A DNA stretch of 36,668 nucleotides from an uncultured Clostridia bacterium (GTDB taxonomy: Bacteria > Bacillota > Clostridia > Christensenellales > Borkfalkiaceae): positions 1 to 36,668 of the forward strand of contig CANPWF010000001.1 in NCBI GenBank assembly GCA_947581885.1, read 5' to 3'. Below the pieces are notes generated by a model. The model had not been told where the DNA came from. It did no database searches and saw only the letters and a list, made by a program, of their open reading frames with translations. The position numbers and the translations under genes are program-made. Shown here piece after piece: positions 2,891 to 28,962 of this stretch (positions are counted from its first letter, which is position 1; each line of letters opens with the position of its first letter).

Positions 2891-3331
2891 ATGAACGAAC
2901 GCACCTTTTTTTATGCACTCGGGAAACTTGTATACCAGATCGACGGCGTGTACGAAGCATACGGCAAAAACTGCCGCGTGGGCTCGCCCAACCTTTTATG
3001 GATCCTGTACGCCCTGAACGACGGGGAGCGGCACAGCCAGAAGCAAATTTGCGAGGATTGGGCAATTCCTCGAAGCACGGCGAACACCATCGTCAAGGAC
3101 TTGGAGAGCAAAAACCTTATCACGCTGTCGCAAATCGAGGGAGAGAGGCGGGAATTGCTCGTTTCATTGACCCCGAGAGGGAAGGAATATGCGGACGGAA
3201 TACTCGCCGACCTGTATAAGAGGGAGCGGGAAATTTACGCGGAGATCGGGGAGCCCGAGGGGCTGCTTTCCACATTACAAGAATTGGCGGCGAAGATGCA
3301 GAAGATCGCCGCAAAAGGAGATAGAATATGA
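2891..3331 (+). CDS. MarR-family transcriptional regulator (146 aa)
   Basis: It has a winged-HTH pattern: [30 protein letters not shown] followed by the wing [15 protein letters not shown]. It is the first gene after the promoter. Its stop overlaps the next start (ATGA at 3328-3331). Confidence 0.9.
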
Positions 3332-6310: not shown

Positions 6311-6607
6311 ATGGCGCTTACGGTGAATATTTATTACACGGGAACGGACGGCAACGCGCGGAAATTTGCCGAGGAGATGCGGGCGTGCGGGCTTGTAGAT
6401 CGGGTGCGCGCAGAGAAGGGAAATCTGCGCTACGAGTACTTTCTGCCCATGGACGATGAGGAGACGGTTTTGCTCATCGATGTGTGGGAGAATGAGGCGG
6501 CGCTCGATCTTCACCACAAGAGCCCGATGATGGCGGAAATCGCCGCACTGCGCGAAAAATATCACCTCAAAATGCGGGTGCAAAAATTTTACGGGGAACT
6601 GTCATGA
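6311..6607 (+). CDS. Antibiotic-biosynthesis-monooxygenase (ABM) domain protein (98 aa)
   Basis: It has a ferredoxin-like ABM pattern (ETVLLIDVWENEAALDLHHKSPMMAEI). The start is uncertain. ATG 6311 has a GGTGGG SD-like box. ATG 6296 is an alternative that overlaps the upstream stop (TAATG). The stop overlaps the next start (ATGA at 6604-6607). Confidence 0.8.
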   Translation: MALTVNIYYTGTDGNARKFAEEMRACGLVDRVRAEKGNLRYEYFLPMDDEETVLLIDVWENEAALDLHHKSPMMAEIAALREKYHLKMRVQKFYGELS

Positions 6608-7083
6608 AAGGAAGAAAAATCACAGCGTTTTGCGGTTTTTTGACAATTTGCCTTCTGTTTTTGTTCGCGGCATGCGGCGGCTCTTTGGCGCCGCCCGCGG
6701 ACACCGAGGAGCCGACCGGAAACGCGGAGGAATTGTTTCTGACGATTGGGAGCCGGAAGATTTCCGTAAAACTCGAAACAAACGCCGCGGCGGCCGCCCT
6801 TGTCGGCATTCTGGAAGAGGGGGATATCACCTACACCGCGCACGATTACGGCGGGTTTGAAAAGGTGGGCGATTTGGGCCGCACCCTTCCCCGCAGCGAT
6901 ACGCAGATGACGGCGGGCGCGGGCGACGTGATCCTCTATTCGGGAGATCAGATCGTGCTGTTCTACGGGAGCAACTCGTGGAGTTATACGAAACTCGGAA
7001 CGATGCAAGGGCTCTCCGCGGCGGAAGTGGAGGAAATTCTTACCGCAGGCGACGAGATCACGGTGACAATCAGTCTGCGGTAA
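6604..7083 (+). CDS. Exported cyclophilin-like-fold lipoprotein (159 aa)
   Basis: It has a signal peptide plus a lipobox (LFAAC, Cys codon 6673-6675). The mature part (LFLTIGSRKISVKLETNAAAAALV ... GDVILYSGDQIVLFYGSNSWSYTKLG) resembles the cyclophilin-like 'Cyclophil_like2' family that commonly sits next to Flavodoxin_4 genes. That family call is from memory. Confidence 0.7.
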   Translation: MKGRKITAFCGFLTICLLFLFAACGGSLAPPADTEEPTGNAEELFLTIGSRKISVKLETNAAAAALVGILEEGDITYTAHDYGGFEKVGDLGRTLPRSDTQMTAGAGDVILYSGDQIVLFYGSNSWSYTKLGTMQGLSAAEVEEILTAGDEITVTISLR

Positions 7084-7099
7084 TGTTGGAGGAGATACG

Positions 7100-7684
7100 A
7101 TGAAAGGAAGAAAACTCACAGCGTTTTGCGGTTTTTTGACAATTTGCATGTTTTTCTCGCTCGCGGCGTGCGGCGGGGAGGACAGGGGGAAACTCGGGGA
7201 GAACGACCCGTCGGAGATCCTCGTTGCGTATTTCTCGTGTACGGGGAATACGGAAAAAGTGGCGGGATACATTGCCGACGTCACGGGCGGGGCGTTCTAT
7301 GAGATCACGGCGCAGGTCCCTTATACCGATGCCGATTTGGATTACAATTCCGACTGCCGCGCAAACAGGGAGCAAAATGACGACGCCGCACGCCCCCTGA
7401 TTTCGGGGAGCGTGGAGAATATGGAGAAATACAGCGTCGTCTATCTCGGCTATCCCATCTGGTGGGGCGAGGCGCCCAAGATCATGTACACGTTCCTCGA
7501 AACCTACGACCTCTCGGGCAAGACCATTGTGCCGTTCTGCACGTCGGGTTCGAGCGGGATCGGTTCGAGCGCGGAGAACATGCACGCCCTTGCGGGCGGC
7601 GCGACGTGGCTCGCGGGCAAGCGGTTTTCCGCTTCGGCCTCGAAGGGCGACGTCGAAAATTGGGTGAACGGTCTGAAAGGCTGA
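7100..7684 (+). CDS. Exported flavodoxin lipoprotein (Flavodoxin_4-like, 194 aa)
   Basis: A GGAGGAG SD lies 5 nt upstream. It has a signal peptide plus a lipobox (SLAAC, Cys codon 7169-7171). The flavodoxin core follows (ILVAYFSCTGNTEKVA, YLGYPIWWGEAP, TIVPFCTSGSSG). Confidence 0.88.
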   Translation: MKGRKLTAFCGFLTICMFFSLAACGGEDRGKLGENDPSEILVAYFSCTGNTEKVAGYIADVTGGAFYEITAQVPYTDADLDYNSDCRANREQNDDAARPLISGSVENMEKYSVVYLGYPIWWGEAPKIMYTFLETYDLSGKTIVPFCTSGSSGIGSSAENMHALAGGATWLAGKRFSASASKGDVENWVNGLKG

Positions 7685-7746
7685 CAAGGCCTTGCGGCGG
7701 GCAACTTGCGCCGCACACGACAGAAAATCCGTCAGAAAATTTTGTT

Positions 7747-7777
7747 ACGCCGTCCGCGTTGCGGGCGGCGTATTTTT
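7747..7777 (+). terminator. Rho-independent terminator of the MarR-led operon
   Basis: An 11-bp stem pairs ACGCCGTCCGC (7747-7757) with GCGGGCGGCGT (7761-7771), with one G-U pair and a GTT loop. ATTTTT follows. Confidence 0.8.
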
Positions 7778-7836
7778 GCATTTGCCCGTGCATACAAAAA
7801 TGCATAAATCTATGCATAAACAAATCGCATACGTAT
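7777..7836. repeat. Five tandem 12-bp-phased TGCAT units
   Basis: The units are tgcatttgcccg, tgcatacaaaaa, tgcataaatcta, tgcataaacaaa and tcgcatacgtat, starting at 7777, 7789, 7801, 7813 and 7825. Two units form ATGCAT palindromes. A TATAAT hexamer lies at 7834-7839. Confidence 0.6.
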
Positions 7837-8080
7837 AATTGTGTCTTTTTAGAGGCGCGGGCGGCAAAGCCCCGATGAAAAGGGGCGGCGCGGTCCCTAT
7901 ATACAATAATATTGGGGAGCGCTGTGCGCCGAGAAAAGAGGAAAAATGCGGGAATGGAAAATAGTAACATTTTTTGTAAAAAAGAGTAAAATATTTGAAT
8001 AACTTATACATTCCTTCTCTGATTTTTATAAAAAAATTCGTATTTTTATAAATTTTTTTTGAAAAACCGAGCGAGAACAA

Positions 8081-8111
8081 TTGACACGGGGGGGGGTATT
8101 GGTGTTATAAT
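8081..8111 (+). promoter_or_regulatory. SigA-type promoter with extended -10, driving the giant surface-protein locus
   Basis: TTGACA (8081-8086), a 19-nt spacer, then TGtTATAAT (8103-8111). It is preceded by a very AT-rich UP-like stretch (8020-8066). It lies ~35 nt upstream of start codon 8147. Confidence 0.7.
8088..8096. repeat. G9 homopolymer within the promoter spacer
   Basis: Nine consecutive G lie between the -35 and the extended -10 elements. The surrounding ~300 nt are strongly AT-rich. Confidence 0.95.
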
Positions 8112-8146
8112 TGTAACAAATTTCTTCATAACGGATGGTGAAATTT

Positions 8147-11100
8147 ATGAAGCGCAAAGTTTTATTGATACTTGGCTTGCTGTTCTCCGTCGTCACCCTG
8201 CTAGGTGCGCTTGCCGCATGCGGCGGCGGGGAAGAACCCGAGAAAAAGCAAGCCGGCTCCGAAGCGGGCACATATTACTGCGACTATAATGGGGTAGAGA
8301 ACGATTTGACCCTCGGTGGCGAATGCGAGTTTGAACTCAAGATCGGCGCCACGGTCATGAAGGGCGGTTACGAACTCGAGGGGGAGGGCCTTACCCTCTC
8401 GCCCGAGAACGCCGGCGTGATCTCCGCAAGATATAAGAACGAAAGGATCTCGTTTACCTATTCAAACGTCTCCTATACGTTTTTGCGGAAGATCGAGTAT
8501 ACGGTGAAGTTCGATACCGACGGCGGGACTGCAATCGACGACGTGAAGGTCGTCAACGGAAGGACGGTCGCAAGACCCACCCCGCCCAAGAAGGGTGAAC
8601 TGATTTTTGTCGGATGGTATACCGATAAGACCTATCAGAACCCGTTCTACTTCTCGCAACCCATCACCGGTGATAAGACGATCTGCGCGCGCTTTGTCGA
8701 GCCGCTCGATCCCGAGTTCGATGTAAAATTCGACCTAGGCTATACGGATGCGGCCGCAATGGCGCCTATCCGCACCGTTGGGCATAAACTCTATCCCGAC
8801 CAACTTCCCACGCCCGAGCGCACGGACGGCGTTGCGTTTATCGGCTGGTACGTCAGCGACTTTGAGACGCGCGATAAACTTTCGCGCGCGTTTGACTTGG
8901 AGGCGGAGGTCGCGCAGGACTTCACGCTGTACGCCGTTTGGGCGGAAACGGAAGGCGAGCCCGTCGTCTCGGTGACCGAGAGCGGCGTGGAGATCTCCGT
9001 GGATGGAGAAAACCTCGGCAATTATAATCTCAAAATCACCGCTCCCGACGACAGCGAGTCCACGCATTCTGACGCGCTTGCGACGGGCGCCACGACGAAA
9101 TACGATTACAATTTCGCCGCGCAAAACGAGGGCGAATATAAGGTGGAAGTCGAAGTTTCCGGCAAGACGACGACCCGCTATCTCAACAACAAGGCGCTTG
9201 CACGCGTCTCGGATTTCCGCCTCGAATTGGCGGGCGAGACGAGAACGTTGATCTTTAACAGCGTTGCGGGCGCAACGGAATATAAGATCACCGTAGAGTG
9301 CGGCACGGAAGGGCACGCGGCCGTTCACACCGAAAAATCGCTCGGCACAACCACGGCTTACGATTTCTCCGAGTGCGCTATGGGGGCGGACAAAACCATT
9401 AAGTTCACCGTGAAGGCGTATGCCGCGGGCCACGTGGCGAGCGTCTCCGAAACGTATGTTTACGACAAGACCCTTGACGAAGTGGACGCCATTACATTCG
9501 ACGAAGCGAAGGGTGATGTCACGTGGAGCAAGGTACCGTATGCGACGGCGTACCGTGTGACCGTTTCGCTCAACGACGAGCAAGTGGGCGAAACCACAGA
9601 ACTCCTTGCCGTTGGTACAAGCGGAAACGTGATGCGCTACTCCGTAAAGGAGATCGGAAAGGGCGAGGTGACCATTGAGGTCGTGCCTGTTGCATTCGGG
9701 TGGAATTCTCCCGAGGTCTCGGAATATACCTTTGAAAAACCCGCTCCCGCCGCTCCCACGAACGTACGTTTCGAGGACGGGAAAATCAAGTGGAACGCGG
9801 TCACGGGCGCAACAAAATATGAAGTTGTGATCGGCGAAACGACGAGAATGGCAGTAAGCGATCCCGCCGGGAACACTCCTCCTACCGAATATCAACTGCA
9901 GGAGGCGGACTTCGGCTCCTTGGAGGAGGCTGTGATCACGGTTTATACCGTGGGCGTGGACGACGCGGATAGATCGTACGCTTCGGATGCGATCAGTGTT
10001 GTGAACGCCAATGAGATCCGCGGCCTCGCCTATGCGGGCGGCTACGCGACGTGGAAGCCCGTATTCGGCGCGACTGCCTATCAGTATAAGGTGGGCACCG
10101 GCAACACTTGGAATACCGTCACTGCGTCCAAAGCGGCCATCGAATTCGGGGCTGCGGGCGAGCAGACCATTTCCGTAAAAGCGGTGAAAGACGGGGCCGA
10201 TTCGCCGGTGGAGACCGTTACCGTCACAGTCTATACCGTAGAGTTTGACATCGGCGGTGCCGCGAGCGAGATCGATGAGGTCGCCGACATGTATCTCGCC
10301 GCGGGCGATCCCATCTCGCTTCCCGTGCCTTCTACATGGCCCGGATATGACTTTGATGGTTGGTACACAGAAGATGGCGGCACAGGCGCAAAATACGAAC
10401 TCACCGTGTTCGACGGCGGCGCTTTGACGCTGTTTGCGAAGTGGAACCCCAAGAAATTCACCATTACGCTCGAAGTCGGCGCAGAAGGAACGTGCCAAGA
10501 AACGTTCGAAGTTTATTACAGACAAACAAACATCTGTCTGCCTATTCCCACGCCTGCCTCCGTGGAATATACCTTTAAGGGTTGGTACCTCGGCGTGGGC
10601 GGTACGGGCAGACTCTATGCGAACGCGACTGACGGATCCGCCGGTACATACACGCAACTTACAGACCTCACGGTCTATGCAAAGTGGACGACTCCCTTTG
10701 CGTATACGAATAAGAGTAACAAGCTTACAGTTACCGCGGGTACAAATATCGGCGGCGAAAAAGAAGTGACTATTCCCGATAAGCATGATGGTTTGCCCGT
10801 TACGACGGTCGGCGATTTCAACTCGGGAACCACACTTGAAATCATCAACATCCCCGATACGGTGGGAAACATCACGCTCGGCACCGTGGGTAGCGCATTT
10901 GAGAGCCTCAAGAACTTGAAAGAGGTCAACATCTATCACGTTGAGGGCAACAATACTCCCAAGTATGCTTCCAAGAACGGCATGGTGTATGAAGTGGAAG
11001 GGAATAAACTCGTCTATGTTCCCAAAGCTTACAAAGCTCCCGCTATCGGTCACAAGGACGACCCGGTGGAAGTGACCATTCCCGACAATATCGAGGTCAT

Positions 11101-14100
11101 CGTTTCGGGCGCAATGTACAAGAACCTGACGATCACCAAGCTCACTATTCCTGCATCGGTGCGCGAAGTGCAGACCAACGCCATTTACGGCAACGACTCC
11201 GAAAAGACGAATGCGAACGGCGATAAACTCGCGGAGATCGTGTTTGAAGCGACGGAGAACGGCACGCTTACTATCGCAAACGAGGCGTTTATCAATCTCC
11301 ATACGCTCACATCCATTACGCTTCCCAAGTATGTGCAGGCACTTGATGCAGAAAGTCACACCGTTATTCTCGGCACGGGCCAGATAAAGAACTGCGTAAG
11401 TCTTGAGAATATCAACATCGCGAACGGCGTTCCCGGTGATGCATACTTCTCGGAGGAAGGCGTACTCTGCCGCACCGCAGAGGGCGTGCGCGAGATTGTA
11501 TACTATCCCACTGCCCGTACGGAGACGTTGTATACGTTCCCCACGACGGTCGGAATCACCGTTATCGGCGCTCATGCGTTTGAAAAGGCAAAGAGCCTTC
11601 AAAGCATCGTTATCCCCGCTACCATCACGAAAATCGGGGAAAGCGCGTTCAACGGTTGCGAAGGTATCCAGAGCATCACGTTCCAATCCGGCGAGAGCGA
11701 TCAAGATCTCACGATCGAGAGAGAGGCTTTCGTCGGGACCAAGGCGCAAAGCCTTACGGTCCCCGCAAATGTTACCTCCGCAGGTTGGCACGCCTTCTAC
11801 ATCAGTACGTTGCAAACGGTCACGTTGAAGGGTAAAACGGGTATGCATGTGGAATATGCGGACAAGGGCGTGTTCCATCCTTCGACGGAAAACCTCACGA
11901 TCGAAGCGAACTTCCCCGTCATCGACATTTCGTCGGCATTTTCGAGCATCAACACTGCGGCGGCAGTACCGTCTCTGACGAAGGCAAAACTGAAAACGAT
12001 CAATATTTCCGCGAACGATAATTATAAGCAAGTGACGGGCAACGAAGCCGGTAAGGGCGCCATTTTCGATAAGGATATGACAAAGATCCTCTACATCGTG
12101 GAGGAGACGGAAGACTTTACGGTCCCCGAGGGTATTACCGAGATCGGCTCTGCGTTGTTCTACAATAATAAGACGTTGCGGACCATCACCATTCCCGCAA
12201 GCGTAAAGACGATCGCAGACAGGGCGTTCAGCGGTTGCGAAAATCTTGCCACGGTCACGTTCTCACCGTTCGTGGCACCCGCGGACAGCGGAGAGGCAAA
12301 GCGTGCCGCCTTGACCATAGGGGAGAAGGCATTCAACGAGTGCAAATCTCTCGCAACGATCGAGCTTCCTGCTGAAACGACATCTATCGGCAAGAGCGCA
12401 TTTAATAAATGCGCAAGCCTTACAGAGTTCACCGTCCCCGGCGGCGTGGCAGTTGTGGAAGAGGATCTGTTCTCCGAAGCCGGCATCGAAAGCATCACGC
12501 TTTCCGAAGGCGTATCGATGATCAAGGCGGGCGCGTTCAACAAGTGCGTTGCATTGGAAACGATCTCGCTTCCCGCGAGCATGGCGACCATCGAGCCCTC
12601 CGTGTTTACAGGATGCAAGGCGCTCACAACGATCACTGTTGCAGAGGAAAGTGAACACTTCAAGTCGATCGACGGCGTGTTGTACACTGCCCAAAAGAGA
12701 GCACAATCTACGGAGATAGACCCCGTAGAACTGTTGTTCGTTCCTCTGAACGGCAAGGCCGACAACGGTACGCTCCGCATTCCCGCAACGGTGACGAGCG
12801 TTGCGGAGAGGGCGGCGCAGTTCAACACCGGGATCACCGCGATCGAATTTGCCGAAAAGGTAGTGAAGTATAATGCGACGACCGGCGACGAGGAAGACGG
12901 CACGCTCGTCATCAACGATTATGCGTTTGGGGGAAATTCTACCGGCAAAACAAAGTTCAGCTCTATCAAACTGCCCATCGGGCTTACGACGATCGGCAAG
13001 CAAGCGTTCTCGTATCTGCACGAGTTGACCTCTATCGAAATTCCTTATACGGTGACGACGATCGGAACGCAGGCGTTCTATATGAGCGACCGTTTGGCGA
13101 CCATCACATTTAAGGAGACGCCCCAAGAGACCGCGGGGGTAGAGCTTACACTTGCAGGCAGTCCGTTCCAGAATGTCACCGGGCTGAAAAACATTGTGTT
13201 GCCCGACCGTCCGAAAGTAACGTTGAGCGTTGCGACGTTCTCGCAGTGCTACAACCTCGAATCGGTCACACTTCCTGCGGGTCTTGCGGAATTGCCCGGA
13301 CCTACATCGGGAGATACCGGCATATTCTCTAACTTCAAGAAGCTGACCACCGTCAACTTCCCCGCGCAGGTCTCCGCGAACTTCTCGATCGGCAAGTATG
13401 CCTTCTCCGGGTGCATCAATCTGGCACACGTTGGCACAGCCAAACAGGTGGATGTAGATGGTAAGGGTATGCAGAAAGAAGTCTACTTCCTGCCCGAAGG
13501 CGTCAAGACGATCGGCGCGTATGCGTTCCGTAACAGCGGACTTACGTCGATCGGCATCCCCGCATCGATGAGCGAATTCAGTCTCGAAAGCGAGGGTGGC
13601 ACATGCTACCGCCCGTTCGGGGGTTGCTCGAAGTTGGAAACAATTGCGTTTGCGAACGATTGCGCACTCACCTATCTGCCCGCAGGACTTATGACGGGTG
13701 CGCGTTCGTTGAAGTATGTGGTGTTCGGCAAGAACTCCCACATCCAAACGATCGGCGCATACGCCAGCGAAATAGTATCCGGAAACGGGCAGTCCGACTC
13801 GTTGGCAGGCGGTGTATTTGCGGGGGCTTCCCAACTTGCAAGCATCACGATCCCCGCATCGGTGGAAGTCATCGAAAACGGTTGCTTCATGAATTTGCCC
13901 TCGTTGCAAGAAGTGAAGTTCGAGGAGGGCAGCAAACTGCAAAAGATCGGCGGCGCTCTTATCACTTCGAACACGGAAGAAAAGGGAACAGACCCCGTGT
14001 TCGCTTTCTCCGGGCTCACCTCCTTCACCTTCCCGAAGATCACCAATGAAGCGGGAGAAGTACAGGAACTCAAAGTTGTGGCCGGCATATTTAGCGGATG

Positions 14101-17100
14101 TTCGAGTCTTACAAGCATCGCGATCTCGGAATCGGTGTGGGAGATCGACAATCTCTTAAAAGGCACGGTCGCGCTCGAAACGCTGACGGTTCCGGAAGGA
14201 AGCGAGCGCTTTGAGGTGGACGAGACGAACAAGGCGCTTTATAGCCTCAAAGAAGGCCAGAGGGATGTTCTTCTCGGCATCTACGGCGATCCGGGCAGCG
14301 TACTCAACATTGCAGGCGGCACGACGCAGATCGTGGCAAGTCTTTACAGGGGCAGAACGTCTATCACGCAGGTAAACATTCCCGATACCGTTGTCTCGAT
14401 CGGCGAAAGCGCATTTGAGAACTGCATCAACCTTACAACGGTGACCATCACCGTGGGCGATGGCAAGACGAGTGCGCTCAGCCTCATCGGTGATGCGGCG
14501 TTCAAGAACTGCTGGAAGCTCGCTTCGTTCGACTTTGCAAAGGCAGTCAACCTCAACCGTATCGGCAAGGAGGCGTTCTCCGCTTGTGCTTTCACGAAGC
14601 TCGACTTGCGGCAGAATCATCAGCTTGGCAATAATGCGGGCGGGACGAGTGTAAACGGCATCGGTGCGCAAGCATTTGAAAACGCTCCTCTGCTCGGCAC
14701 GGAGATGATCGATACCGCTATCGCGGCCACGGACCAATACTCCGTCATGTTCCCCGCAGAGCTGAAAACGATCGAGAAGGCGGCGTTCAGGAATACGCCG
14801 ATCACGAAGATCGATTTGAGCGGGACGAAGGTAACAAAGCTACCCGGCGGTACAAGCAACGATGGTATCTTCATGGGCTGTGCGCAACTCAAAGATGTGA
14901 AATTGCCCGTCGGCCTGACGTTGATAGAGGCACGAACGTTCTATAATTCGGGTCTTGAAACGATCAACCTCGAAGAGTTGGTCAACTTGACCGACATCAA
15001 GGCAAATGCGTTCAACAATACGCAACTCACGAGCATCGTGTTCCCCGAGGCAAAGAAGTTTGCAGCGACGACATCGCAATCCAGCATTTTTGCGAACAAC
15101 ACGAAGTTGAAATCTGTGGATATGTCGAAGGCGACCAGAATCCAGACGTACGGCAGCAGCGCATTCTCGGGGTGTCCCGAACTTGAAACGGTAACGTTGC
15201 CGAGCAGTCTCACCACGATCGGCAACAACATGTTTAAGGATTGCACTTCGCTTGAAAGTATCACTATCCCCGAAAATGTGACCTCGATTGGCAACAGCGC
15301 ATTCGAGGGTTGCACGGGTCTTGGAAACGTGACGATTCAAGCGACCGGGCTCAAAACGATCGGCAACAAAGCGTTCTCGGGCACGGTGCTCACGAGCTTC
15401 GATTTCCCGCAGACGGTGGAGTCGCTTGGCACGAACGCATTCGACGGCTGTTCGGAACTCGCGGAAGTGACATTCCACGACAACAGCAAGTTGACCATCG
15501 GAAATTATGCTTTCCAAGGAACGGGTCTCACTTCCGTTCACTTGCCCGAAGGGGTGGCGTCGATCAATCAATATGCGTTCAACAATTGCACGAGCCTCAC
15601 TACGGTGGAGTACGATAAGGACGGCATCACACTCGGTACGAGCTGCTTCGCGAATACCGCTCTCGCATCGTTTGACTTTGCACACGTGAAGGAGGTCGGT
15701 GCTACTGCATTCCAGAACACGAAGTTCACGGAGTTCACTTTCCCTGAACATACCATCTCTTGGAAAGCTGGCGTATTTACCGACTGTGCGGAACTCACGC
15801 AGGCTACGTTCCCGTCGTATGTGACGGAGATCCCCGCCAGCATGTTGAAGGGTTGTACCGCACTTGAAAAAGTGACGATCCAAAACGAATACCTCACCAC
15901 GATCAACAACAGTGCGTTTGAGGGTTGCACGGCGCTCGATGAAATCGAATGGCCCGCATCGCTCGACAGCCTTACAAAGCTCGGCACAAGTGTGTTCAAG
16001 GGGACCGGGTTCACCGCGATGGATCTCTCCAAGATGACGAACGAAAAAATCAACAATTTGCCCACAAGCACGTTCAGCGGCTGTGAAAGCCTTGGAAGCG
16101 TAAGACTAGCGCAGAATATGGTAACTTTCGGCGGGAAAGAAGTGTTTAAGGGCTGCACGAGCCTCACCACGGTGAACGGCATGAACCAAATCACAACGCT
16201 CACCGAAAGCGCATTTGACGGTTGCACGTCGCTCGCGACGATCGACATATCGAACGTGACCACGTTTGCCAAGAATGCCTTCAAGGGGTGCACCGAACTC
16301 AACAATGTGACCATCAACGAGAACGCTACCGCAATCGCCGAGGGAACATTTGCGGGGTGCGCAAGCCTTGCCAATATCGGGGACACTGAGACGGCGAACA
16401 TCACCTCGATCGCCAAGCGCGCATTCCAAGGGACCGCGTTCACGACATTTAAGATCCCCGCGAGCCTTACTACCGTCACCGCTTCCGCGTTCGACAGCTG
16501 CACCGACCTTGTAAGCTTTACCGTAGCGGACGAGAACGAAACGTTTGTAGTCGGTGAAAACGGTGAGCTCTATCAGCGCGGCGAGGGCGACGCGAAGATC
16601 CTCATCTGCTATCCCGCCGCCGCCACGACCGTGGAGATCGCCGCGGATGCGACGGAGATCGCTGCGCTTGCGTTCTCGGGCATAGGCGGCACGGGCAAGA
16701 CCCTCACCGTTCCCGGGAATGTCACGATCGACGGCTACGCCTTCGTGGGCTGCACATTCGATAAGGTCATCGTGGAGGACGGCGAAGGAGCCCTTGCACA
16801 GTACGCCTTTGCGCAAAACTCGTCGACTTATCCTGATGCGATTTGCGGCGTCAAAGAGGTAGAGTTCAGGGGCAGCACGGCGCTCAATGCGTCGGCGGCA
16901 ATGACCTCCTCCCAGTACCTGTTCCAGAACAACACGGGTACCACCAAGGTGACATTCCCCGAAGGGCTTACGACGATCGGCTCTTATTGGTTCGCAGGCA
17001 CAAGCAAGACGTCTTCCGCGGATGCGATCCCCACGGCTATCACCACAGTGGTTATTCCCGCCTCGGTGACGACCATCAAGGATTCGGCGTTCAAGGACGC

Positions 17101-17959
17101 GAGCCTCACGGACATCGTCATTCCCGAGACCGTCACTACGATCGAACAGAATGCGTTCGCGAACAATACCTCGCTCACCCACCTCACGTTCAATGCGCCC
17201 GTCGACCAGGTGAACATCGCCGCATCGGTATTCTCGGGCTGCACCTCGCTTGAAACGGTGAAGTTCGGGTCCAAGGTGACGACGATCGGCGAAAAGATGT
17301 TTGAAGGCTGCACATCGCTTGCGCACTTCGTCGCTGTCGCGGATGGCGACGCGGAGACGCAGGACGCCCTTCCAGAGTCGGTCGATTACATCGGCGCGGC
17401 CGCGTTCAAGGGAACTGCCATCGAGAAGCTTACGCTCCCCGGCAGTGCAGAAAAGCCGCTCACGATCGTTCATAACGGAAACGACGGCACCTTTGAGGGC
17501 TGCGCAAAATTGAAAAATATGGTGGTCCCTGAAGGAACGACGGAATTGCCTTATAAGATGTTCTATGGGTGCACCGCACTCGAATGGGTGAAACTTCCCG
17601 ACACCATTATAAAGGTGAACGGCAACGTCTTCTACAATTGCGCGTCGCTCAAATTCGTAAATTTGCCCGGAAGCATTGCCGAATTCTCTTCGAGTTTCCT
17701 CGGTAAGACGCCGAATCTTCATGTGTTCGTCGCGAAGGGCATCGCCAAATTCGGCACGGGTATATTCTGGACGAATGAAGAAGGGAACCGCCATATCTAC
17801 TTCGAGGACGATGAGTACACGGTGCTCTCCACGCGCGGGTTGACGTGGCACGCCAAGACCGACCATAGCGACTTCACTTGCGGCGCAACGCTTGCGCAGG
17901 CGCTGGAAGCTTCGGGCGCGACGGACTTCCCCGAGTATAACGAAATCGTAACGGATTAA
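8147..17959 (+). CDS. Giant surface lipoprotein (3,270 aa) with a BspA-type LRR array
   Basis: ATG 8147 has a GGTGA SD 5 nt upstream; the ORF-track ATG 8135 sits inside that SD. The signal peptide plus lipobox is LGALAAC (Cys codon 8219-8221). Two Listeria-Bacteroides (Flg_new) repeats lie at nt ~8489-8941 (YTVKFDTDGGT...FVGWYTD...ARF). About five FN3-like modules with a W..V.GAT.Y.V signature lie at ~8957-10234. Two more Flg_new repeats lie at ~10235-10687. A ~2,300-aa array of BspA/LRR_5-type repeats then runs over ~10700-17750 (e.g. IPASVKTIADRAFSGCENL, IPENVTSIGNSAFEGCTGL). I estimate 90-100 units but did not count them. I saw no LPXTG, SLH or choline-binding motif. Confidence 0.93.
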   Translation: MKRKVLLILGLLFSVVTLLGALAACGGGEEPEKKQAGSEAGTYYCDYNGVENDLTLGGECEFELKIGATVMKGGYELEGEGLTLSPENAGVISARYKNERISFTYSNVSYTFLRKIEYTVKFDTDGGTAIDDVKVVNGRTVARPTPPKKGELIFVGWYTDKTYQNPFYFSQPITGDKTICARFVEPLDPEFDVKFDLGYTDAAAMAPIRTVGHKLYPDQLPTPERTDGVAFIGWYVSDFETRDKLSRAFDLEAEVAQDFTLYAVWAETEGEPVVSVTESGVEISVDGENLGNYNLKITAPDDSESTHSDALATGATTKYDYNFAAQNEGEYKVEVEVSGKTTTRYLNNKALARVSDFRLELAGETRTLIFNSVAGATEYKITVECGTEGHAAVHTEKSLGTTTAYDFSECAMGADKTIKFTVKAYAAGHVASVSETYVYDKTLDEVDAITFDEAKGDVTWSKVPYATAYRVTVSLNDEQVGETTELLAVGTSGNVMRYSVKEIGKGEVTIEVVPVAFGWNSPEVSEYTFEKPAPAAPTNVRFEDGKIKWNAVTGATKYEVVIGETTRMAVSDPAGNTPPTEYQLQEADFGSLEEAVITVYTVGVDDADRSYASDAISVVNANEIRGLAYAGGYATWKPVFGATAYQYKVGTGNTWNTVTASKAAIEFGAAGEQTISVKAVKDGADSPVETVTVTVYTVEFDIGGAASEIDEVADMYLAAGDPISLPVPSTWPGYDFDGWYTEDGGTGAKYELTVFDGGALTLFAKWNPKKFTITLEVGAEGTCQETFEVYYRQTNICLPIPTPASVEYTFKGWYLGVGGTGRLYANATDGSAGTYTQLTDLTVYAKWTTPFAYTNKSNKLTVTAGTNIGGEKEVTIPDKHDGLPVTTVGDFNSGTTLEIINIPDTVGNITLGTVGSAFESLKNLKEVNIYHVEGNNTPKYASKNGMVYEVEGNKLVYVPKAYKAPAIGHKDDPVEVTIPDNIEVIVSGAMYKNLTITKLTIPASVREVQTNAIYGNDSEKTNANGDKLAEIVFEATENGTLTIANEAFINLHTLTSITLPKYVQALDAESHTVILGTGQIKNCVSLENINIANGVPGDAYFSEEGVLCRTAEGVREIVYYPTARTETLYTFPTTVGITVIGAHAFEKAKSLQSIVIPATITKIGESAFNGCEGIQSITFQSGESDQDLTIEREAFVGTKAQSLTVPANVTSAGWHAFYISTLQTVTLKGKTGMHVEYADKGVFHPSTENLTIEANFPVIDISSAFSSINTAAAVPSLTKAKLKTINISANDNYKQVTGNEAGKGAIFDKDMTKILYIVEETEDFTVPEGITEIGSALFYNNKTLRTITIPASVKTIADRAFSGCENLATVTFSPFVAPADSGEAKRAALTIGEKAFNECKSLATIELPAETTSIGKSAFNKCASLTEFTVPGGVAVVEEDLFSEAGIESITLSEGVSMIKAGAFNKCVALETISLPASMATIEPSVFTGCKALTTITVAEESEHFKSIDGVLYTAQKRAQSTEIDPVELLFVPLNGKADNGTLRIPATVTSVAERAAQFNTGITAIEFAEKVVKYNATTGDEEDGTLVINDYAFGGNSTGKTKFSSIKLPIGLTTIGKQAFSYLHELTSIEIPYTVTTIGTQAFYMSDRLATITFKETPQETAGVELTLAGSPFQNVTGLKNIVLPDRPKVTLSVATFSQCYNLESVTLPAGLAELPGPTSGDTGIFSNFKKLTTVNFPAQVSANFSIGKYAFSGCINLAHVGTAKQVDVDGKGMQKEVYFLPEGVKTIGAYAFRNSGLTSIGIPASMSEFSLESEGGTCYRPFGGCSKLETIAFANDCALTYLPAGLMTGARSLKYVVFGKNSHIQTIGAYASEIVSGNGQSDSLAGGVFAGASQLASITIPASVEVIENGCFMNLPSLQEVKFEEGSKLQKIGGALITSNTEEKGTDPVFAFSGLTSFTFPKITNEAGEVQELKVVAGIFSGCSSLTSIAISESVWEIDNLLKGTVALETLTVPEGSERFEVDETNKALYSLKEGQRDVLLGIYGDPGSVLNIAGGTTQIVASLYRGRTSITQVNIPDTVVSIGESAFENCINLTTVTITVGDGKTSALSLIGDAAFKNCWKLASFDFAKAVNLNRIGKEAFSACAFTKLDLRQNHQLGNNAGGTSVNGIGAQAFENAPLLGTEMIDTAIAATDQYSVMFPAELKTIEKAAFRNTPITKIDLSGTKVTKLPGGTSNDGIFMGCAQLKDVKLPVGLTLIEARTFYNSGLETINLEELVNLTDIKANAFNNTQLTSIVFPEAKKFAATTSQSSIFANNTKLKSVDMSKATRIQTYGSSAFSGCPELETVTLPSSLTTIGNNMFKDCTSLESITIPENVTSIGNSAFEGCTGLGNVTIQATGLKTIGNKAFSGTVLTSFDFPQTVESLGTNAFDGCSELAEVTFHDNSKLTIGNYAFQGTGLTSVHLPEGVASINQYAFNNCTSLTTVEYDKDGITLGTSCFANTALASFDFAHVKEVGATAFQNTKFTEFTFPEHTISWKAGVFTDCAELTQATFPSYVTEIPASMLKGCTALEKVTIQNEYLTTINNSAFEGCTALDEIEWPASLDSLTKLGTSVFKGTGFTAMDLSKMTNEKINNLPTSTFSGCESLGSVRLAQNMVTFGGKEVFKGCTSLTTVNGMNQITTLTESAFDGCTSLATIDISNVTTFAKNAFKGCTELNNVTINENATAIAEGTFAGCASLANIGDTETANITSIAKRAFQGTAFTTFKIPASLTTVTASAFDSCTDLVSFTVADENETFVVGENGELYQRGEGDAKILICYPAAATTVEIAADATEIAALAFSGIGGTGKTLTVPGNVTIDGYAFVGCTFDKVIVEDGEGALAQYAFAQNSSTYPDAICGVKEVEFRGSTALNASAAMTSSQYLFQNNTGTTKVTFPEGLTTIGSYWFAGTSKTSSADAIPTAITTVVIPASVTTIKDSAFKDASLTDIVIPETVTTIEQNAFANNTSLTHLTFNAPVDQVNIAASVFSGCTSLETVKFGSKVTTIGEKMFEGCTSLAHFVAVADGDAETQDALPESVDYIGAAAFKGTAIEKLTLPGSAEKPLTIVHNGNDGTFEGCAKLKNMVVPEGTTELPYKMFYGCTALEWVKLPDTIIKVNGNVFYNCASLKFVNLPGSIAEFSSSFLGKTPNLHVFVAKGIAKFGTGIFWTNEEGNRHIYFEDDEYTVLSTRGLTWHAKTDHSDFTCGATLAQALEASGATDFPEYNEIVTD

Positions 17960-18007
17960 GTGAACATTCCGCAAAATTGCGGAAAAAATTGAACGAAAGC
18001 AGTAAGA

Positions 18008-18040
18008 CCTCAGCGGTTTTCTTCGGAAATACCGCTGAGG
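18008..18040 (+). terminator. Stable UUCG-capped hairpin after the giant gene (weak or partial terminator, or a processing site)
   Basis: CCTCAGCGGTTTTC (18008-18021) pairs with GAAAtACCGCTGAGG (18026-18040), with a TTCG loop and one bulged T. There is no proper U-tract afterwards (CATACGCGTTTC). A smaller hairpin lies at 17968-17985. Confidence 0.4.
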
Positions 18041-18092
18041 CATACGCGTTTCAAAAGAACCTTGAAAAAATCGCCTTTGAAAGGAGGATACT

Positions 18093-19199
18093 ATGAAGGA
18101 CACCATGAAGAAATTCCGGCGAAGGATCGTCCGCGGCGCCATTTTGAAATCGGCTCTTGCCGCGCTCATCATCGCGTGCGGCGCGCTCCTCGTGACTGCA
18201 CTCGCCTCGTGGATCGCGGGCTTCCGTGCGGGCATCTGGCTCGCGCTCGGGCTGTTCGTCCTTTCGTTCGCAGTCAGCGCGCTCCTGTTCTATTTCCTCA
18301 AGTACCGCCCCTCCGCAAAGGAAGTGGCGCGCAGGATCGACGCGATCGGCCTTGAAGAGCGCCTCATCACGATGATGGAACTCGAAGGGGATGATTCCTA
18401 CCTCGCAAAAATGCAACGCGCGGACACCGAGCGGGCGCTCAAAACCGCCGACCATACCCTCATCAAAGTGGCGGCGTCGGTCGCGCTGTGCGTGACCGTG
18501 GGCGTTGCCGCGCTCTTTGGGGTGGGTGCGCTCACCGTCGATTCGCTCTACGTGGCGGGAGTCATCCCCAGCGGCGTGGAGTATGCCGCCTACCTTGAAG
18601 CAGAGCATGAGTTTACGTGCAGTTATTCCGTCGAAAAGAAGGGCGGCAAGATTTACTTCCTGACGGAGGAGGGCATCGGAGACGAAGTGACGGAAGCCAT
18701 CATCGTGGCCAAGGGCGAAAGCGCCCCGACTGTCATTGCCGTGCCCGATGAAGGCTACGTATTTACGGGATGGTCGGACGGCCTGTACGACCCCGTCCGC
18801 TGCGACGAGGGCGTGAAGGAGAAGATCCGCGTGCGCGCCAAGTTTGCGGTAGCCGAGGGACCTGACGATTTGCAGGATGACGGGGCCCAGCAACAAAAGC
18901 CTTCGGACGACGACTCCAGCGGCGATCCGGAAGATACGCCCCCGCAAGACGATCCCTCTCAACCGTCAAACGGCGCTCCAAGCAATGGCGCCAGCGGCGG
19001 CCACGACAATACCAACCAACAGGTCAATGACGGCAAGACCTATTACGGCGACGAGTACGGTGACGCCTACAATGACGCGATGGGACGCCTCGGCGACGGG
19101 AGCAATATCCCTGGGGATCTGCAGGGCGGCGTTTCGGGTTACCTCGATTCCATCGGCAAGGGCGGCTCCGAAGGCGGCGAAAGCGGCGGCGGAAATTAA
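18093..19199 (+). CDS. Three-TM membrane protein with an external Listeria-Bacteroides repeat and an acidic/Gly-Ser-rich tail (368 aa)
   Basis: An AAGGAGG SD lies 5 nt upstream. A TM hairpin spans aa ~17-70. A charged helical segment follows (EVARRIDAIGLEERLITMMELEGDD...), then a third TM (VAASVALCVTVGVAALFGVGAL). Next comes a Flg_new-like module (IAVPDEGYVFTGWSDGLYDP...RVRAKF). The last ~118 aa are low-complexity D/S/G/P/N (nt ~18843-19199). Confidence 0.85.
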   Translation: MKDTMKKFRRRIVRGAILKSALAALIIACGALLVTALASWIAGFRAGIWLALGLFVLSFAVSALLFYFLKYRPSAKEVARRIDAIGLEERLITMMELEGDDSYLAKMQRADTERALKTADHTLIKVAASVALCVTVGVAALFGVGALTVDSLYVAGVIPSGVEYAAYLEAEHEFTCSYSVEKKGGKIYFLTEEGIGDEVTEAIIVAKGESAPTVIAVPDEGYVFTGWSDGLYDPVRCDEGVKEKIRVRAKFAVAEGPDDLQDDGAQQQKPSDDDSSGDPEDTPPQDDPSQPSNGAPSNGASGGHDNTNQQVNDGKTYYGDEYGDAYNDAMGRLGDGSNIPGDLQGGVSGYLDSIGKGGSEGGESGGGN

Positions 19200-19232
19200 A
19201 GCGACAAAAATTCTTACAAAGAGAGAGAAACC

Positions 19233-20378
19233 ATGGTAACAGAACAGGACATCAAGCAATTCAGCGAAATTTGCACGCAGATCTTCAAACAGATTGCGCG
19301 GGACGTCATCGGGCAGGAAAAGGTCGTGCAGGGCACAGTCATTGCGATGATCGCGGGCGGCAACGTCCTCCTCGAGGGCGTGCCCGGCGTCGGCAAGACG
19401 CGGCTCGTGAGAACGCTCGGCAGAGTGTTCGATCTGCCCTTCTCGCGCATCCAGTTCACTCCCGACCTCATGCCGGCGGACGTGACGGGCACCAACATCA
19501 TCGTGAAGGATGAGAAGGGCAACTCGCAGTTCAGTTTCCAGCCGGGGCCCATATTCAGCAACATCATCCTCGCCGATGAGATCAACCGCGCCACCCCCAA
19601 GACGCAGTCGGCGCTCCTCGAAGCCATGCAGGAGCACACCGTCACCGTCATGGGCGTCTCGCGCAGACTCAATGAGCCGTTCTTCGTGCTTGCAACGCAG
19701 AACCCCATCGAACAGGACGGCACCTATCCTCTGCCCGAAGCGCAGATGGATCGTTTCATGTTCAAACTGCTCGTGCCCGATCCCTCGCTGGATGAACTCA
19801 TGCAGATCGTCAGCCTCACGCAAAAGACGATGGATGAAGTCGCGGAACGGGCGTGCACGGGGGAGCAACTGCTCGCCATGCGCAAGACTGCCAACCAGAT
19901 CCCCATTGCGGAGGACGTTTTGAAATACGCGATGATCCTCGTCGCGGCGACGAGGCCCGACGGCGAATGCGCGACGGAGGCGGCGAAGAAGTATATCCGC
20001 GTCGGCGCGAGCCCCCGTGCGGGACAGGCCATTGTCTCGGCGGCGAAGGTGCTCGCCCTCATCAAGGGCAGGTTCAACGTGTCGTACTACGACCTGTTCG
20101 AGATGGTGTATCCCGTATTCCGCCACCGTTTGAAACTCAATTTCGAGGCGGTCGCGGAGCGCGTTACCGCGGACGACGTGATCACCATGATCCTCGAAGA
20201 GGTGGAAAAGAAGTATCACAAGCGTCCCACAGCGGGAAAACCGCTCGCCGTGCCCGCAGAGGAACAGAAGGACGCGGAGGCGCCTGAAAAGCCGGCGGAG
20301 GCGCAGGAAGAAACAGCGGCTGAGATTGCCGAGGATCCGGAGAAAAAGAAGAAACGCGGCTTGTTCGGCAGAAAATAA
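19233..20378 (+). CDS. MoxR-family AAA+ ATPase (AAA_3 type, 381 aa) with a charged C-terminal extension
   Basis: It has Walker A (LLEGVPGVGKT), Walker B (IILADEINRA) and the MoxR-typical segments TPKTQSALLEAMQE and FFVLATQNPIEQDGTYPLPEAQMDRF. A C-terminal lid follows (GASPRAGQAIVSAAKVLALIKGR). About 60 aa of E/K/A/P-rich tail are appended. Confidence 0.93.
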   Translation: MVTEQDIKQFSEICTQIFKQIARDVIGQEKVVQGTVIAMIAGGNVLLEGVPGVGKTRLVRTLGRVFDLPFSRIQFTPDLMPADVTGTNIIVKDEKGNSQFSFQPGPIFSNIILADEINRATPKTQSALLEAMQEHTVTVMGVSRRLNEPFFVLATQNPIEQDGTYPLPEAQMDRFMFKLLVPDPSLDELMQIVSLTQKTMDEVAERACTGEQLLAMRKTANQIPIAEDVLKYAMILVAATRPDGECATEAAKKYIRVGASPRAGQAIVSAAKVLALIKGRFNVSYYDLFEMVYPVFRHRLKLNFEAVAERVTADDVITMILEEVEKKYHKRPTAGKPLAVPAEEQKDAEAPEKPAEAQEETAAEIAEDPEKKKKRGLFGRK

Positions 20379-20394
20379 ACGGGCGTAAAAGTGA

Positions 20395-21294
20395 ATGAAG
20401 GTAACGCAACTCGATGACGCGTTTTTCAGCCGTTTGGAAACGCTGTCATTAAATTTAAAGTCCAATCTCGCGGGGTATTTCGGCGGGAAGCATTTGGTGA
20501 AGACGTACGGGCAGACTGTGGAATTTGCCGATTTCCGCGAATATCAACTCGGCGACGATATCCGCCGCATCGACTGGAATTTGTTCAGCAGGTTTGAAAA
20601 ATACTTTCTGCGCCTGTTTACGGACGAAAGACAGATGCAGGTGCAAGTATTTTTGGACTTATCCGCTTCGGTTGGAAAGAACGACGAGCAAAAGGGCGCC
20701 TATGCCATAGGCGCCGCGGCGGCGCTCGGCTTTTTGGCTGTCCAAAATATGGATAAGCTCACCTTTCACCTCATGCGCGGCAATGTGGCGGATAATCCGT
20801 TCGGCACGCTTGTGGGAAAAAACGCCTTTTTTCGCGCGATGAGTTCCATCCGCGAACTTGAATTCGACGGCGATGTCGATATTTCGGCGTGTGTCGCGGG
20901 TTGCCGCGATACAGGAAACAACAACGGGCTCACCGTCATCGTATCCGACTTTCTCACCGAAAGCGATTGGAAGAAAGCGGTCGACTATTTGTGCTATAAA
21001 AAGAGGCAGGTCCTCTTGTTGCAAGTCCTCTCCCCCGAGGAGCTCGAACCGTCTTACGACGGCAGGGTGCTCCTCGTCGACGCGGAAGCCGAGGATCTTG
21101 AGGATCCGAGGAACATGCGTTTGAGGATCAATCCCGCCATGCAACAGGCATATCAGGAGGCTTTGCGCGATTTGCGCGAAGGAATGCGCTCCTATACCGC
21201 CAAGCGTGGTGCGGGCTATATTTCCGTCTCTTCGGATACCCCCATAGAGCGCGTGCTTTTCGGGGAACTTCTGAAATCTGGGATCATGTCATGA
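20395..21294 (+). CDS. DUF58 domain protein (MoxR-associated, VWA-like; 299 aa)
   Basis: It carries the DUF58 signature GKHLVKTYGQTVEFADFREYQLGDDIRRIDWNLFSR. A MIDAS-like FLDLSAS follows. The gene sits immediately after moxR, as in Bat/MoxR operons. Its stop overlaps the next start (ATGA at 21291-21294). Confidence 0.9.
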   Translation: MKVTQLDDAFFSRLETLSLNLKSNLAGYFGGKHLVKTYGQTVEFADFREYQLGDDIRRIDWNLFSRFEKYFLRLFTDERQMQVQVFLDLSASVGKNDEQKGAYAIGAAAALGFLAVQNMDKLTFHLMRGNVADNPFGTLVGKNAFFRAMSSIRELEFDGDVDISACVAGCRDTGNNNGLTVIVSDFLTESDWKKAVDYLCYKKRQVLLLQVLSPEELEPSYDGRVLLVDAEAEDLEDPRNMRLRINPAMQQAYQEALRDLREGMRSYTAKRGAGYISVSSDTPIERVLFGELLKSGIMS

Positions 21295-23240
21295 TGCAAT
21301 TGCTTTTACCGTTGGGCTTATTGGGGCTTCTGGGTGTTCTGGCACTCATCATCATTTACGTCATCAAGCCCAATTATCAGACAAAGCACGTTTCCACGAC
21401 ATATGTCTGGAAATTGAGCTTGAAATACAGAAGGAAACGGCTTCCGACCAGCAGGGTGCGGAATATTATCCTATTTATTTGCCAACTTCTCATTTTGATC
21501 GCCATGGCTCTCATTCTTGCACAACCTGCCATCGTGTACAATAACGACACGGGCGAACTCGATACGGTTGCGATTATCGATTCGTCCGCAAGCATGTATG
21601 CGGGCACGGACGGTGAGACGCGGTTCGACCGCGCCGTGGCAGAGGCAAGAACGCTCTCCGAGGAGACTCTGCAAAAGGGCGGCAACGCTTCGGTCATTTT
21701 GGCGGACGCTTCGCCAACTTTTTTGGCGCAGCGCGTCACGCAGAAAAACAGCCGCCTTCTATATGACGGGTTCGACGCCATCGAGAACGGTGATGTGAAA
21801 TGTTCGTACGGGTCGAGCGACGTCAATGCGGCGCTTGCCCTGTCAGAGGATGTGCTTGCGGTGAACCCGTCGGCCAAGATTTATCTCTATACCGATGTTC
21901 AATACAACTATATCCCCGAAAACGTGACTGTCGTCTCCGTCGCCGAAACGGGCGAGTGGAACGCAGCCATTCTCTCCGTCACATCCGAACTCGTGGACGG
22001 TTTCTATGCCGTGACGGTGGAGGTCGCAAATTACGGAAACAACAGGGAACTCAACGTGGAACTCACCGTAACGGGGGCGGATGCACAGGATGCCGCCATG
22101 AGCGGACGTTCTGTCTCCGTGTCCCAGAGCGTCTATTGCGACGGGGACACGGTAAAGACCGTCATCTTCTGCGACGGCGGCGGTGCGGATAGCGAGGACG
22201 TCATTTATTGCGACCTCGGTCCATCCGACAGGTTTTATTCCTACCGTTCCATCCATGTGGCTGTGGATGAGGACGACAGTTACCGCACGGACAACAATTT
22301 TTATCTTTATGACGGGCAGAAAGAGCTCGTCAAAGTACTGTATGCGAGCACCGACCCCAACCCCTTCTTTACGAGTGCGCTCGACTCATTGAAAGAGTTG
22401 TTTGCGGGCCGCTGGCAGTTGCAGGTGGACGAAGTTCCCAAGGGGCAGGAATTTCCGCAGAGCGGGTACGATTTCTATGTGTATGAGCATACCGCGCCCG
22501 ACGTGCTTCCCGTGGACGGGGCAGTCTTGCTCGCCGATCCCGACCGCGCGCCCGCAGGAACGGGACTGCGGCTTCGCAACATAAAGGCAACGGCGAACGG
22601 TTCTCTCATCCCGTGCGACGGGCTGACGGCGCACCCCGTGACGCAATATCTTGTCCCCGAATATATCCAGGTCAGCCGCTATACCGTGTTTGATTTTGAC
22701 GCCGACTATGAGGCGTTGCTCACGGTCGGCTCCGATCCGTTGCTCCTCGTCGAGAACCACGAGAATATCAAGATCGCCGTTCTGCCGTTCAGCGTGCACT
22801 ATTCCAATATCGCGTTGCAACCAGAGTGGCTCATCTTGCTGTACAACATTTTTAACTATTTCCTGCCTACGACGGTAAACGGCACTGCGTTTGAGGTCAA
22901 CGAGGACATCGTGCTGAGCGCCAGGGGGCCGCGGGTCACCTATTCGGACACCGAGGACCCCGTCGAGGAGTTTCCCGCCACATTGAGATTTTCCACTCCC
23001 GGCACCTATATCCTGCGGCAGGAACTGTATTTTACCGACAAAGAGCCCGTTAACGTCAGCATTTTCGTGCGTGCGCCGAGGGCGGAAAGCAACCTGTGGG
23101 CGGTGGAAGATACGTTGGAGGATCCGTATAAGGAGGATTACGGCGGCTCCTCTTATGACGATCTGCTCGTCTATCTCGCCGCCGCGCTCGTGGCGCTCCT
23201 CGTCTTGGAGTGGATCTTGCATTCGAGGGAGGGTAGGTAG
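21291..23240 (+). CDS. BatA-like membrane protein: aerotolerance-regulator N-terminal TM domain plus a VWA-like domain (649 aa)
   Basis: The N-terminus LLLPLGLLGLLGVLALIIIYVIKP plus a second TM (IILFICQLLILIAMALILAQP) is typical of the BatA_N domain. A MIDAS motif AIIDSSASM lies at nt ~21579. There is a C-terminal TM (LLVYLAAALVALLVLEWIL). Confidence 0.85.
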   Translation: MMQLLLPLGLLGLLGVLALIIIYVIKPNYQTKHVSTTYVWKLSLKYRRKRLPTSRVRNIILFICQLLILIAMALILAQPAIVYNNDTGELDTVAIIDSSASMYAGTDGETRFDRAVAEARTLSEETLQKGGNASVILADASPTFLAQRVTQKNSRLLYDGFDAIENGDVKCSYGSSDVNAALALSEDVLAVNPSAKIYLYTDVQYNYIPENVTVVSVAETGEWNAAILSVTSELVDGFYAVTVEVANYGNNRELNVELTVTGADAQDAAMSGRSVSVSQSVYCDGDTVKTVIFCDGGGADSEDVIYCDLGPSDRFYSYRSIHVAVDEDDSYRTDNNFYLYDGQKELVKVLYASTDPNPFFTSALDSLKELFAGRWQLQVDEVPKGQEFPQSGYDFYVYEHTAPDVLPVDGAVLLADPDRAPAGTGLRLRNIKATANGSLIPCDGLTAHPVTQYLVPEYIQVSRYTVFDFDADYEALLTVGSDPLLLVENHENIKIAVLPFSVHYSNIALQPEWLILLYNIFNYFLPTTVNGTAFEVNEDIVLSARGPRVTYSDTEDPVEEFPATLRFSTPGTYILRQELYFTDKEPVNVSIFVRAPRAESNLWAVEDTLEDPYKEDYGGSSYDDLLVYLAAALVALLVLEWILHSREGR

Positions 23241-23245
23241 AGATC

Positions 23246-28935: not shown

Positions 28936-28962
28936 ATGAGTTATCAATGAGGAGTGTTGATT

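Follow-up and report, generated by a model that had tools for sequence, protein, structure and literature searches.

Gene content of the locus and layout of its promoter

The window, which is the whole stretch of 36,668 nucleotides analysed here from an uncultured Clostridia bacterium, carries a giant lipoprotein gene flanked on both sides by genes on the same strand. The locus is laid out as follows.

Upstream, plus strand: pheT, then genes for a MarR-type regulator, a flavodoxin, an FMN-reductase, an aldo-keto reductase and a CMD/cupin protein
Upstream, continued, plus strand: a cyclophilin-like lipoprotein gene, then a flavodoxin-like lipoprotein gene (ending at 7684)
8147-17959, plus strand: giant lipoprotein gene (3270 aa; BspA-type LRR and Listeria-Bacteroides repeats)
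17967-18052, plus strand: two stem-loops in the 133-nt gap 3' of the giant gene
18093-34089, plus strand: seven genes (assigned by Pfam) with short or overlapping junctions, in the order 368-aa Flg_new_2 protein, MoxR AAA_3 ATPase, DUF58, BatA/VWA, VWA, 962-aa BspA-LRR protein, 1711-aa Flg_new protein
34219-35238, minus strand: IS30-like transposase (HTH_38 and rve), bounding the locus directly past its last gene

In the 3270-aa product, Pfam assigned 21 stretches to LRR_5 (E = 0) and 3 to Flg_new. The N-terminus is characterized by a signal peptide, MKRKVLLILGLLFSVVTLLGALAAC, with the lipobox LAAC, and the MKRK start is conserved among relatives; the product is predicted to be a surface-exposed lipoprotein. 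The cyclophilin-like and flavodoxin-like genes share a 77-nt 5' segment (6604-6680 and 7100-7176, respectively; 88% identical), which encodes near-identical lipoprotein signal peptides, MKGRK(I/L)TAFCGFLTIC...AAC. Therefore, both redox/cyclophilin-like products appear to be exported lipoproteins with a duplicated leader.

Folding of the RNA from 17960 to 18092 gave -42.3 kcal/mol (z = -4.6) and a clean U tract was absent. The two stem-loops may represent a partial terminator, or a site of RNA processing or stabilisation. The seven downstream genes are possibly co-transcribed with the giant gene, and no convincing internal promoter was found ahead of the downstream MoxR module. The Bat-like module (19233-26050), composed of MoxR AAA_3, DUF58, BatA/VWA and VWA proteins, sits amid giant proteins of the BspA-LRR and Flg_new types.

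An intergenic region of 460 nt separates the flavodoxin-like lipoprotein gene from the giant gene. It contains a clean terminator (7746-7772) belonging to the former and, closer to the latter, the following elements.

8021-8066, plus strand: AT-rich imperfect inverted repeat (repeat I3; TTTTTATAAAAAAATT / AATTTTTTTTGAAAAA), 88% complementary, upstream of the -35 hexamer
8081-8086, plus strand: -35 hexamer, consensus TTGACA, unchanged across all eight related promoters
8087-8105, plus strand: 19-nt spacer, consisting of c (8087), G9, tattgg (8097-8102) and TGt (8103-8105)
8088-8096, plus strand: G9 homopolymer (GGGGGGGGG) within the -35/-10 spacer, the proposed slippage-prone element
8103-8104, plus strand: TG of an extended -10 (TGn), read directly from the sequence (TGc in the related locus L005, TGt in L006)
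8106-8111, plus strand: -10 hexamer, consensus TATAAT
8137-8141, plus strand: Shine-Dalgarno-like GGTGA, 5 nt ahead of the ATG, read directly

The end of the -10 hexamer lies 35 nt from the ATG at 8147, and relatives carry GGAGG or AGGAG where the window has GGTGA. The sequence-only reading had described this promoter as TTGACA, G9, TGt and TATAAT with a 19-nt spacer, which matches the sequence exactly; its estimate of a low G+C content around the tract (roughly 20-30%) was also borne out, with 22% measured over the 130 nt upstream (7950-8080) versus 55% for the window.

Both the promoter and its tract are singular at the scale of the window. A perfect TTGACA-N15-21-TATAAT arrangement occurs only once on both strands of the 36.7 kb; the G9 run is the longest homopolymer, with no other G or C run longer than six, and a first-order model gives a probability of about 5e-5 to 9e-5 that any particular 19-nt spacer holds a G run of at least nine. 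A generic promoter scan misses this promoter because the scan allows spacers of 16-18 nt and the spacer here is 19 nt. Elsewhere in the window, promoter-like sites use 17-nt spacers (the MarR operon, for example, has TTGACA-17-TATACT); the organism's polymerase is therefore conventional.

Rfam, run on the entire window, on the intergenic region by itself and on ten related loci, detected no RNA family at the promoter; the output consisted of sub-threshold chance matches and one tRNA in L014. A hairpin in the 5' UTR (8118-8146) that might occlude the ribosome-binding site was considered and rejected, as it folded no better than shuffled sequence (z = -0.3).

Related loci and the conservation of promoter and tract

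This organism is seldom represented in public sequence data. Exact-protein look-ups with the flavodoxin and cyclophilin-like proteins returned three short ENA contigs (L001-L003), each 100% identical to the window, and the same strain is therefore present in three other samples; the CMD/cupin protein gave no exact-protein record. Relatives were sought by protein searches with the N-terminal 200 aa, by contig look-ups, and by a single scan each of the genome and the metagenome collections. From this, seven further 5' ends with comparable promoters were recovered. They are listed below with the window; amino-acid identities refer to the window's N-terminal 200 residues.

Window: spacer c-G9-tattgg-TGt, 19 nt
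L005: 67% aa identity, ~84% nt identity in the coding sequence; spacer c-G9-tatcgg-TGc, 19 nt
L006: 64% aa identity, ~66% nt identity in the coding sequence; spacer ggcac-G8-aa-TGt, 18 nt
L004: 52% aa identity; spacer without G tract, 18 nt
L012: 49% aa identity; spacer without G tract, 18 nt
L013: 48% aa identity; spacer without G tract, with T7, 18 nt
L014: 44% aa identity; spacer without G tract, with G4 at the equivalent position, 18 nt
L015: 46% aa identity; spacer without G tract, 18 nt

L006 comes from a rabbit-gut metagenome-assembled genome (MAG) of an uncultured Clostridia bacterium. It was the sole true relative in the genome-collection scan, the four other matches being to the Flg_new repeat only. 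The metagenome scan yielded one distant relative (L011, 34% identity), which had no comparable promoter; in the distant loci L016, L017 and L018, a comparable promoter was absent or the upstream DNA was too short. Two further features of the related loci were set aside: the apparent split of the gene in L005 corresponds to sequence divergence rather than to a repeat-associated frameshift, and a C7 run in L012 belongs to an ordinary terminator stem.

All eight loci (the window and the seven relatives) exhibited a perfect TTGACA and a perfect TATAAT, placed 30-38 nt before the conserved MKRK start, with spacer sequences that are unrelated to each other. Because the hexamers are perfect and hold a constant distance to the start codon while the spacer sequence varies, this comparison strongly supports a genuine promoter. 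The promoter call of the sequence-only reading is thus supported by eight lineages with the same geometry. Spacers of 18 nt were observed in all five tract-free relatives and in L006 (6 out of 8 related promoters), and the family norm is therefore 18 nt, slightly off the 17-nt optimum.

The tract itself was found only in the three closest lineages, as G9 in the window, G9 in L005 (337-345) and G8 in L006 (385-392), where the lengths given for L005 (1.7x coverage) and the window may be off by one; the comparison contigs as a whole had a coverage of 1.7-2.7x. The non-G part of the spacer amounts to 10 nt in both the window and L006, so that the difference between 19 and 18 nt is due entirely to G9 versus G8, i.e. 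one slippage unit. Upstream non-coding identity to the window was 63% for L005 and 54% for L006, and the bases flanking the tract within the spacer had changed, while the G run was uninterrupted. The chance of eight consecutive unchanged positions is about 0.007, a rough value that is uncorrected for conserved blocks. On this comparison, which the sequence-only reading had called for, the G tract appears as conserved as the hexamers in the tract lineages, being retained in the three closest of them while its surroundings diverged.

Tract and tract-free lineages also differed in the rest of the spacer. Spacer G+C content was 68-79% in the tract lineages versus 17-50% in the others, and the extended -10 TGn was present in 3 out of 3 tract lineages versus 1 out of 5 tract-free relatives (spacers read by eye).

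Two further blocks of the intergenic region are conserved. The AT-rich inverted repeat at 8021-8066 is nearly invariant in L005 and L006, and its TTATAAAT-like core also occurs in the tract-free L004, L012, L013 and L014; it could be an UP element or a site for a regulator. Directly past the flavodoxin terminator, five TGCAT(A)/ATGCAT motifs were observed at intervals of 12-13 nt (7776-7840), in an array that ends in TATAAT (7834-7839) and has conserved counterparts in L005 (at about 38-92) and in L006 (at about 44-100). The array precedes the G-tract promoter by ~270 nt and could serve as an operator array or constitute a second promoter. No terminator was predicted between it and the giant gene, and its TATAAT block might add tract-independent read-through transcription into the giant gene.

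G9 runs were absent from a background of ~68 kb (32 kb of unrelated loci plus the rest of the window) and were found at three other places among the related loci. In L006, a second G9 (520-528) occupies codons 28-31 (ACG GGG GGG GGT), immediately past the lipobox Cys, and the assembly has it in frame; a change of -1 leads to a stop at residue 62 and a change of +1 to a stop at residue 31. Its placement is the classic one for translational phase variation. In L004, a G9 (132-140) precedes the promoter by ~195 nt, with AGAGGAGGAG and a terminator-like hairpin after it (~2x coverage). In L017, a coding G9 (1228-1236) is located 15 nt before an in-frame TAG, past which the same frame is open (~2x coverage).

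A proposed slippage rheostat and its alternatives

We propose, with a probability of roughly 0.6, that the tract acts as a porA / tp0126-type slipped-strand rheostat at the sigma-A-type promoter of the giant BspA-type lipoprotein gene. The locus exhibits a homopolymer of at least ~7 nt (here G9) between recognisable -35 and -10 hexamers, and a product that is predicted to act at the surface or in host interaction, given its LAAC lipobox, 21 LRR_5 stretches and Flg_new repeats. Tracts of G7, G8, G9 and G10 correspond to spacers of 17, 18, 19 and 20 nt, respectively, and single-unit steps cross the optimum.

Under this proposal, slipped-strand mispairing during replication would add or remove G's, so that cells with G7, G8, G9 and G10 would be present in one population. 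RNA polymerase would contact the -35 and -10 hexamers best at 17-18 nt; G7 and G8 would be high-expression states, and G9, as in the window, or longer tracts would be low-expression states. On this view, the low state would apply to the window and L005, and the normal one to L006. The promoter also has an extended -10 (TGn), which would buffer spacing defects, and an AT-rich upstream block; the low states would therefore probably be leaky, which would result in a heritable and reversible rheostat with graded tuning rather than in a strict ON/OFF switch. The advantage would likely be that cells of one population differ in a lipoprotein that is very large, exposed and probably adhesive or antigenic.

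The slippage switch or rheostat suggested by the sequence-only reading is therefore retained in part: the promoter, the retention of the tract, the way in which spacer length tracks tract length and the second G9 of L006 all agree with it, but a clean ON/OFF switch is less likely than graded tuning. Likewise, the loss of two G's had been expected to give a near-perfect promoter, and G7 would indeed give the textbook 17 nt; however, the loss of one G already restores the usual state, since the five tract-free relatives and L006 all have 18 nt. As for control by the tract of the whole giant-adhesin/MoxR locus, this part of the suggestion is uncertain: the gap behind the giant gene holds two strong hairpins, yet a good promoter further downstream was not found either.

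Several observations count against a rheostat. Two lineages that differ at ~16% of positions share G9, and a fixed, selected length would look alike; the 19-nt consensus of two lineages corresponds to the state predicted to be weak; the extended -10 could leave the promoter largely insensitive to spacing; tract lengths may be miscalled by one; and transcription reading through from the upstream TATAAT-containing block (7776-7840) might be independent of the tract.

The first of these observations also belongs to the best-surviving alternative, which we consider unlikely while giving it real weight. Here the tract would be a fixed spacer element: a rigid, G+C-rich and slightly over-long spacer would set a constitutively low promoter strength for a very costly 3270-aa protein, or bind a putative factor, and length changes would be rare and non-regulatory. 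The occurrence of G8 and G9 alone in three lineages, with the same G9 in two that are ~84% identical, fits such an element, as does the elevated G+C content of the tract-lineage spacers. Moreover, the 18-nt spacer is supra-optimal and family-wide even without a tract, suggesting selection for attenuation. Yet the five tract-free relatives show that any sequence can attenuate, and no means of doing so is less stable than a pure homopolymer, of which the window has no other comparable run. An attenuator of this kind does not account for the G run having stayed uninterrupted while flanking spacer bases changed, nor for G8 and G9 differing by exactly one slippage unit, and the coding G9 of L006 is not explicable as a promoter attenuator.

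MerR-family target promoters are typified by good hexamers with a 19-nt spacer; in them, an activator bound in the deliberately over-long spacer untwists the DNA and realigns the -35 and -10 hexamers. The spacing was confirmed here, and it resembles the 19-20-bp spacers of those promoters, but a palindromic spacer operator and a nearby MerR gene are lacking: an inverted-repeat search found no inverted repeat within 8081-8111, where the G run has no matching C run, and no MerR domain was detected among the 18 window proteins scanned, whose only regulators are the MarR-type protein (2891-3331) and the HTH of the IS transposase. Furthermore, 6 out of 8 related promoters have 18 nt. We regard activation of the MerR kind as very improbable.

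We judge it just as improbable that the poly-G arose in sequencing or assembly (e.g. from two-colour-chemistry G calls), or that its true length is 8 and the promoter a normal 18-nt one: homopolymer lengths are error-prone, the comparison contigs are of low coverage and one contig (L001) ends inside the tract, but the tract occurs at the homologous position with homologous flanks in independent assemblies from different samples and lineages (G9 in L005, G8 in L006 and the first six G's in L001), spurious poly-G sits at read ends rather than embedded in conserved promoters, and a miscall of +/-1 would alter the inferred state and not the existence of the tract.

The contig end in L001 was also considered in its own right. 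L001, the only same-strain contig that reaches the promoter, is 100% identical to the window over 1278 nt and stops after the sixth G (1266-1278, equal to window 8081-8093). The chance that a random contig end falls inside the tract is roughly 1%. The break is suggestive only, as it fits either length heterogeneity or difficulty in sequencing poly-G. The tract also matters for assembly practice, since contigs may break at such sites.

Returning to the slippage rheostat, the second G9 of L006 would add a translational ON/OFF layer to it in at least that one relative. A broader reading, which we put forward only tentatively and hold to be unlikely as a whole, is that a clade of uncultured gut Clostridia (rabbit-gut MAG relatives) has a contingency system in which G8-G9 tracts act at two levels, at the 5' ends of its giant BspA-type lipoprotein genes. 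A promoter-spacer rheostat (17/18/19 nt) would be combined with translational ON/OFF switching in the codons directly following the lipobox Cys, and gating by the promoter tract might extend to the downstream MoxR-DUF58-VWA module.

Comparison with known systems and significance

The closest parallel is porA of Neisseria meningitidis, where, as summarised in PMC7864442, a poly-G tract lies between the -35 and -10 hexamers and its length sets the spacing, and hence the level of transcription. The likeness consists of a G homopolymer in the sigma-70-type promoter spacer of a surface protein gene. The two differ in host (a proteobacterial pathogen versus an uncultured gut Clostridia bacterium) and in product (a porin versus a 3270-aa BspA-type lipoprotein); in addition, the promoter described here has an extended -10, and the length variation of its tract and the resulting effect are proposed ones. 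Changes in -35/-10 spacing also switch surface lipoproteins and fimbriae through the poly-A tracts of Mycoplasma hyorhinis vlp and the TA repeats of Haemophilus influenzae hifA/hifB, respectively. In these systems, the repeat likewise lies between the hexamers at -35 and -10, whereas the repeat unit and the organisms differ.

Several Treponema pallidum genes offer a second comparison. The tp0126 gene, which encodes an OmpW homologue, has poly-G between the -35 and -10 hexamers, with optimal transcription at a 17-nt spacing; tracts of up to 8 G's are permissive at tprE/G/J; and at tprL, tracts of 7-11 G's coexist in vivo, mostly 9 (PMC7864442). These lengths are in the same range as the 8-9 G's observed here. 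The tprL tract overlaps the -10 hexamer, whereas ours lies within the spacer, and the Treponema cases draw on fragment-length and reporter evidence, in contrast to the sequence comparison presented here.

As regards the product, Ca. Mycoplasma girerdii has BspA-like surface proteins that phase-vary via repeats, as detected in metagenomic reads (PMC5476646). The protein class, BspA-type LRR surface proteins, is the same. However, the repeats of Ca. Mycoplasma girerdii are coding dinucleotides with translational ON/OFF effects, whereas the tract described here is a promoter-spacer homopolymer, with a coding tract only in L006.

The mechanism is thus a textbook one that is already known. The novelty lies in uncultured gut Clostridia as host, in a giant BspA-type lipoprotein beside a MoxR-VWA module as product, and in the pairing of two tracts in L006. 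To our knowledge, documented phase variation in Clostridia relies on invertible DNA. The literature searched contained no account of a promoter-spacer switch based on repeats in Clostridia; as far as it shows, the two-level contingency system, if true, would mean that a promoter-spacing switch driven by repeats is described in this class for the first time.

Were the tract to slip, uncultured gut Firmicutes of an abundant class would vary a giant surface lipoprotein with the cheap mutational device known from Neisseria and Treponema, and repeat-based contingency loci would extend to commensal Clostridia. Tract length in metagenomic reads would then serve as a marker of the state of this surface protein in vivo.
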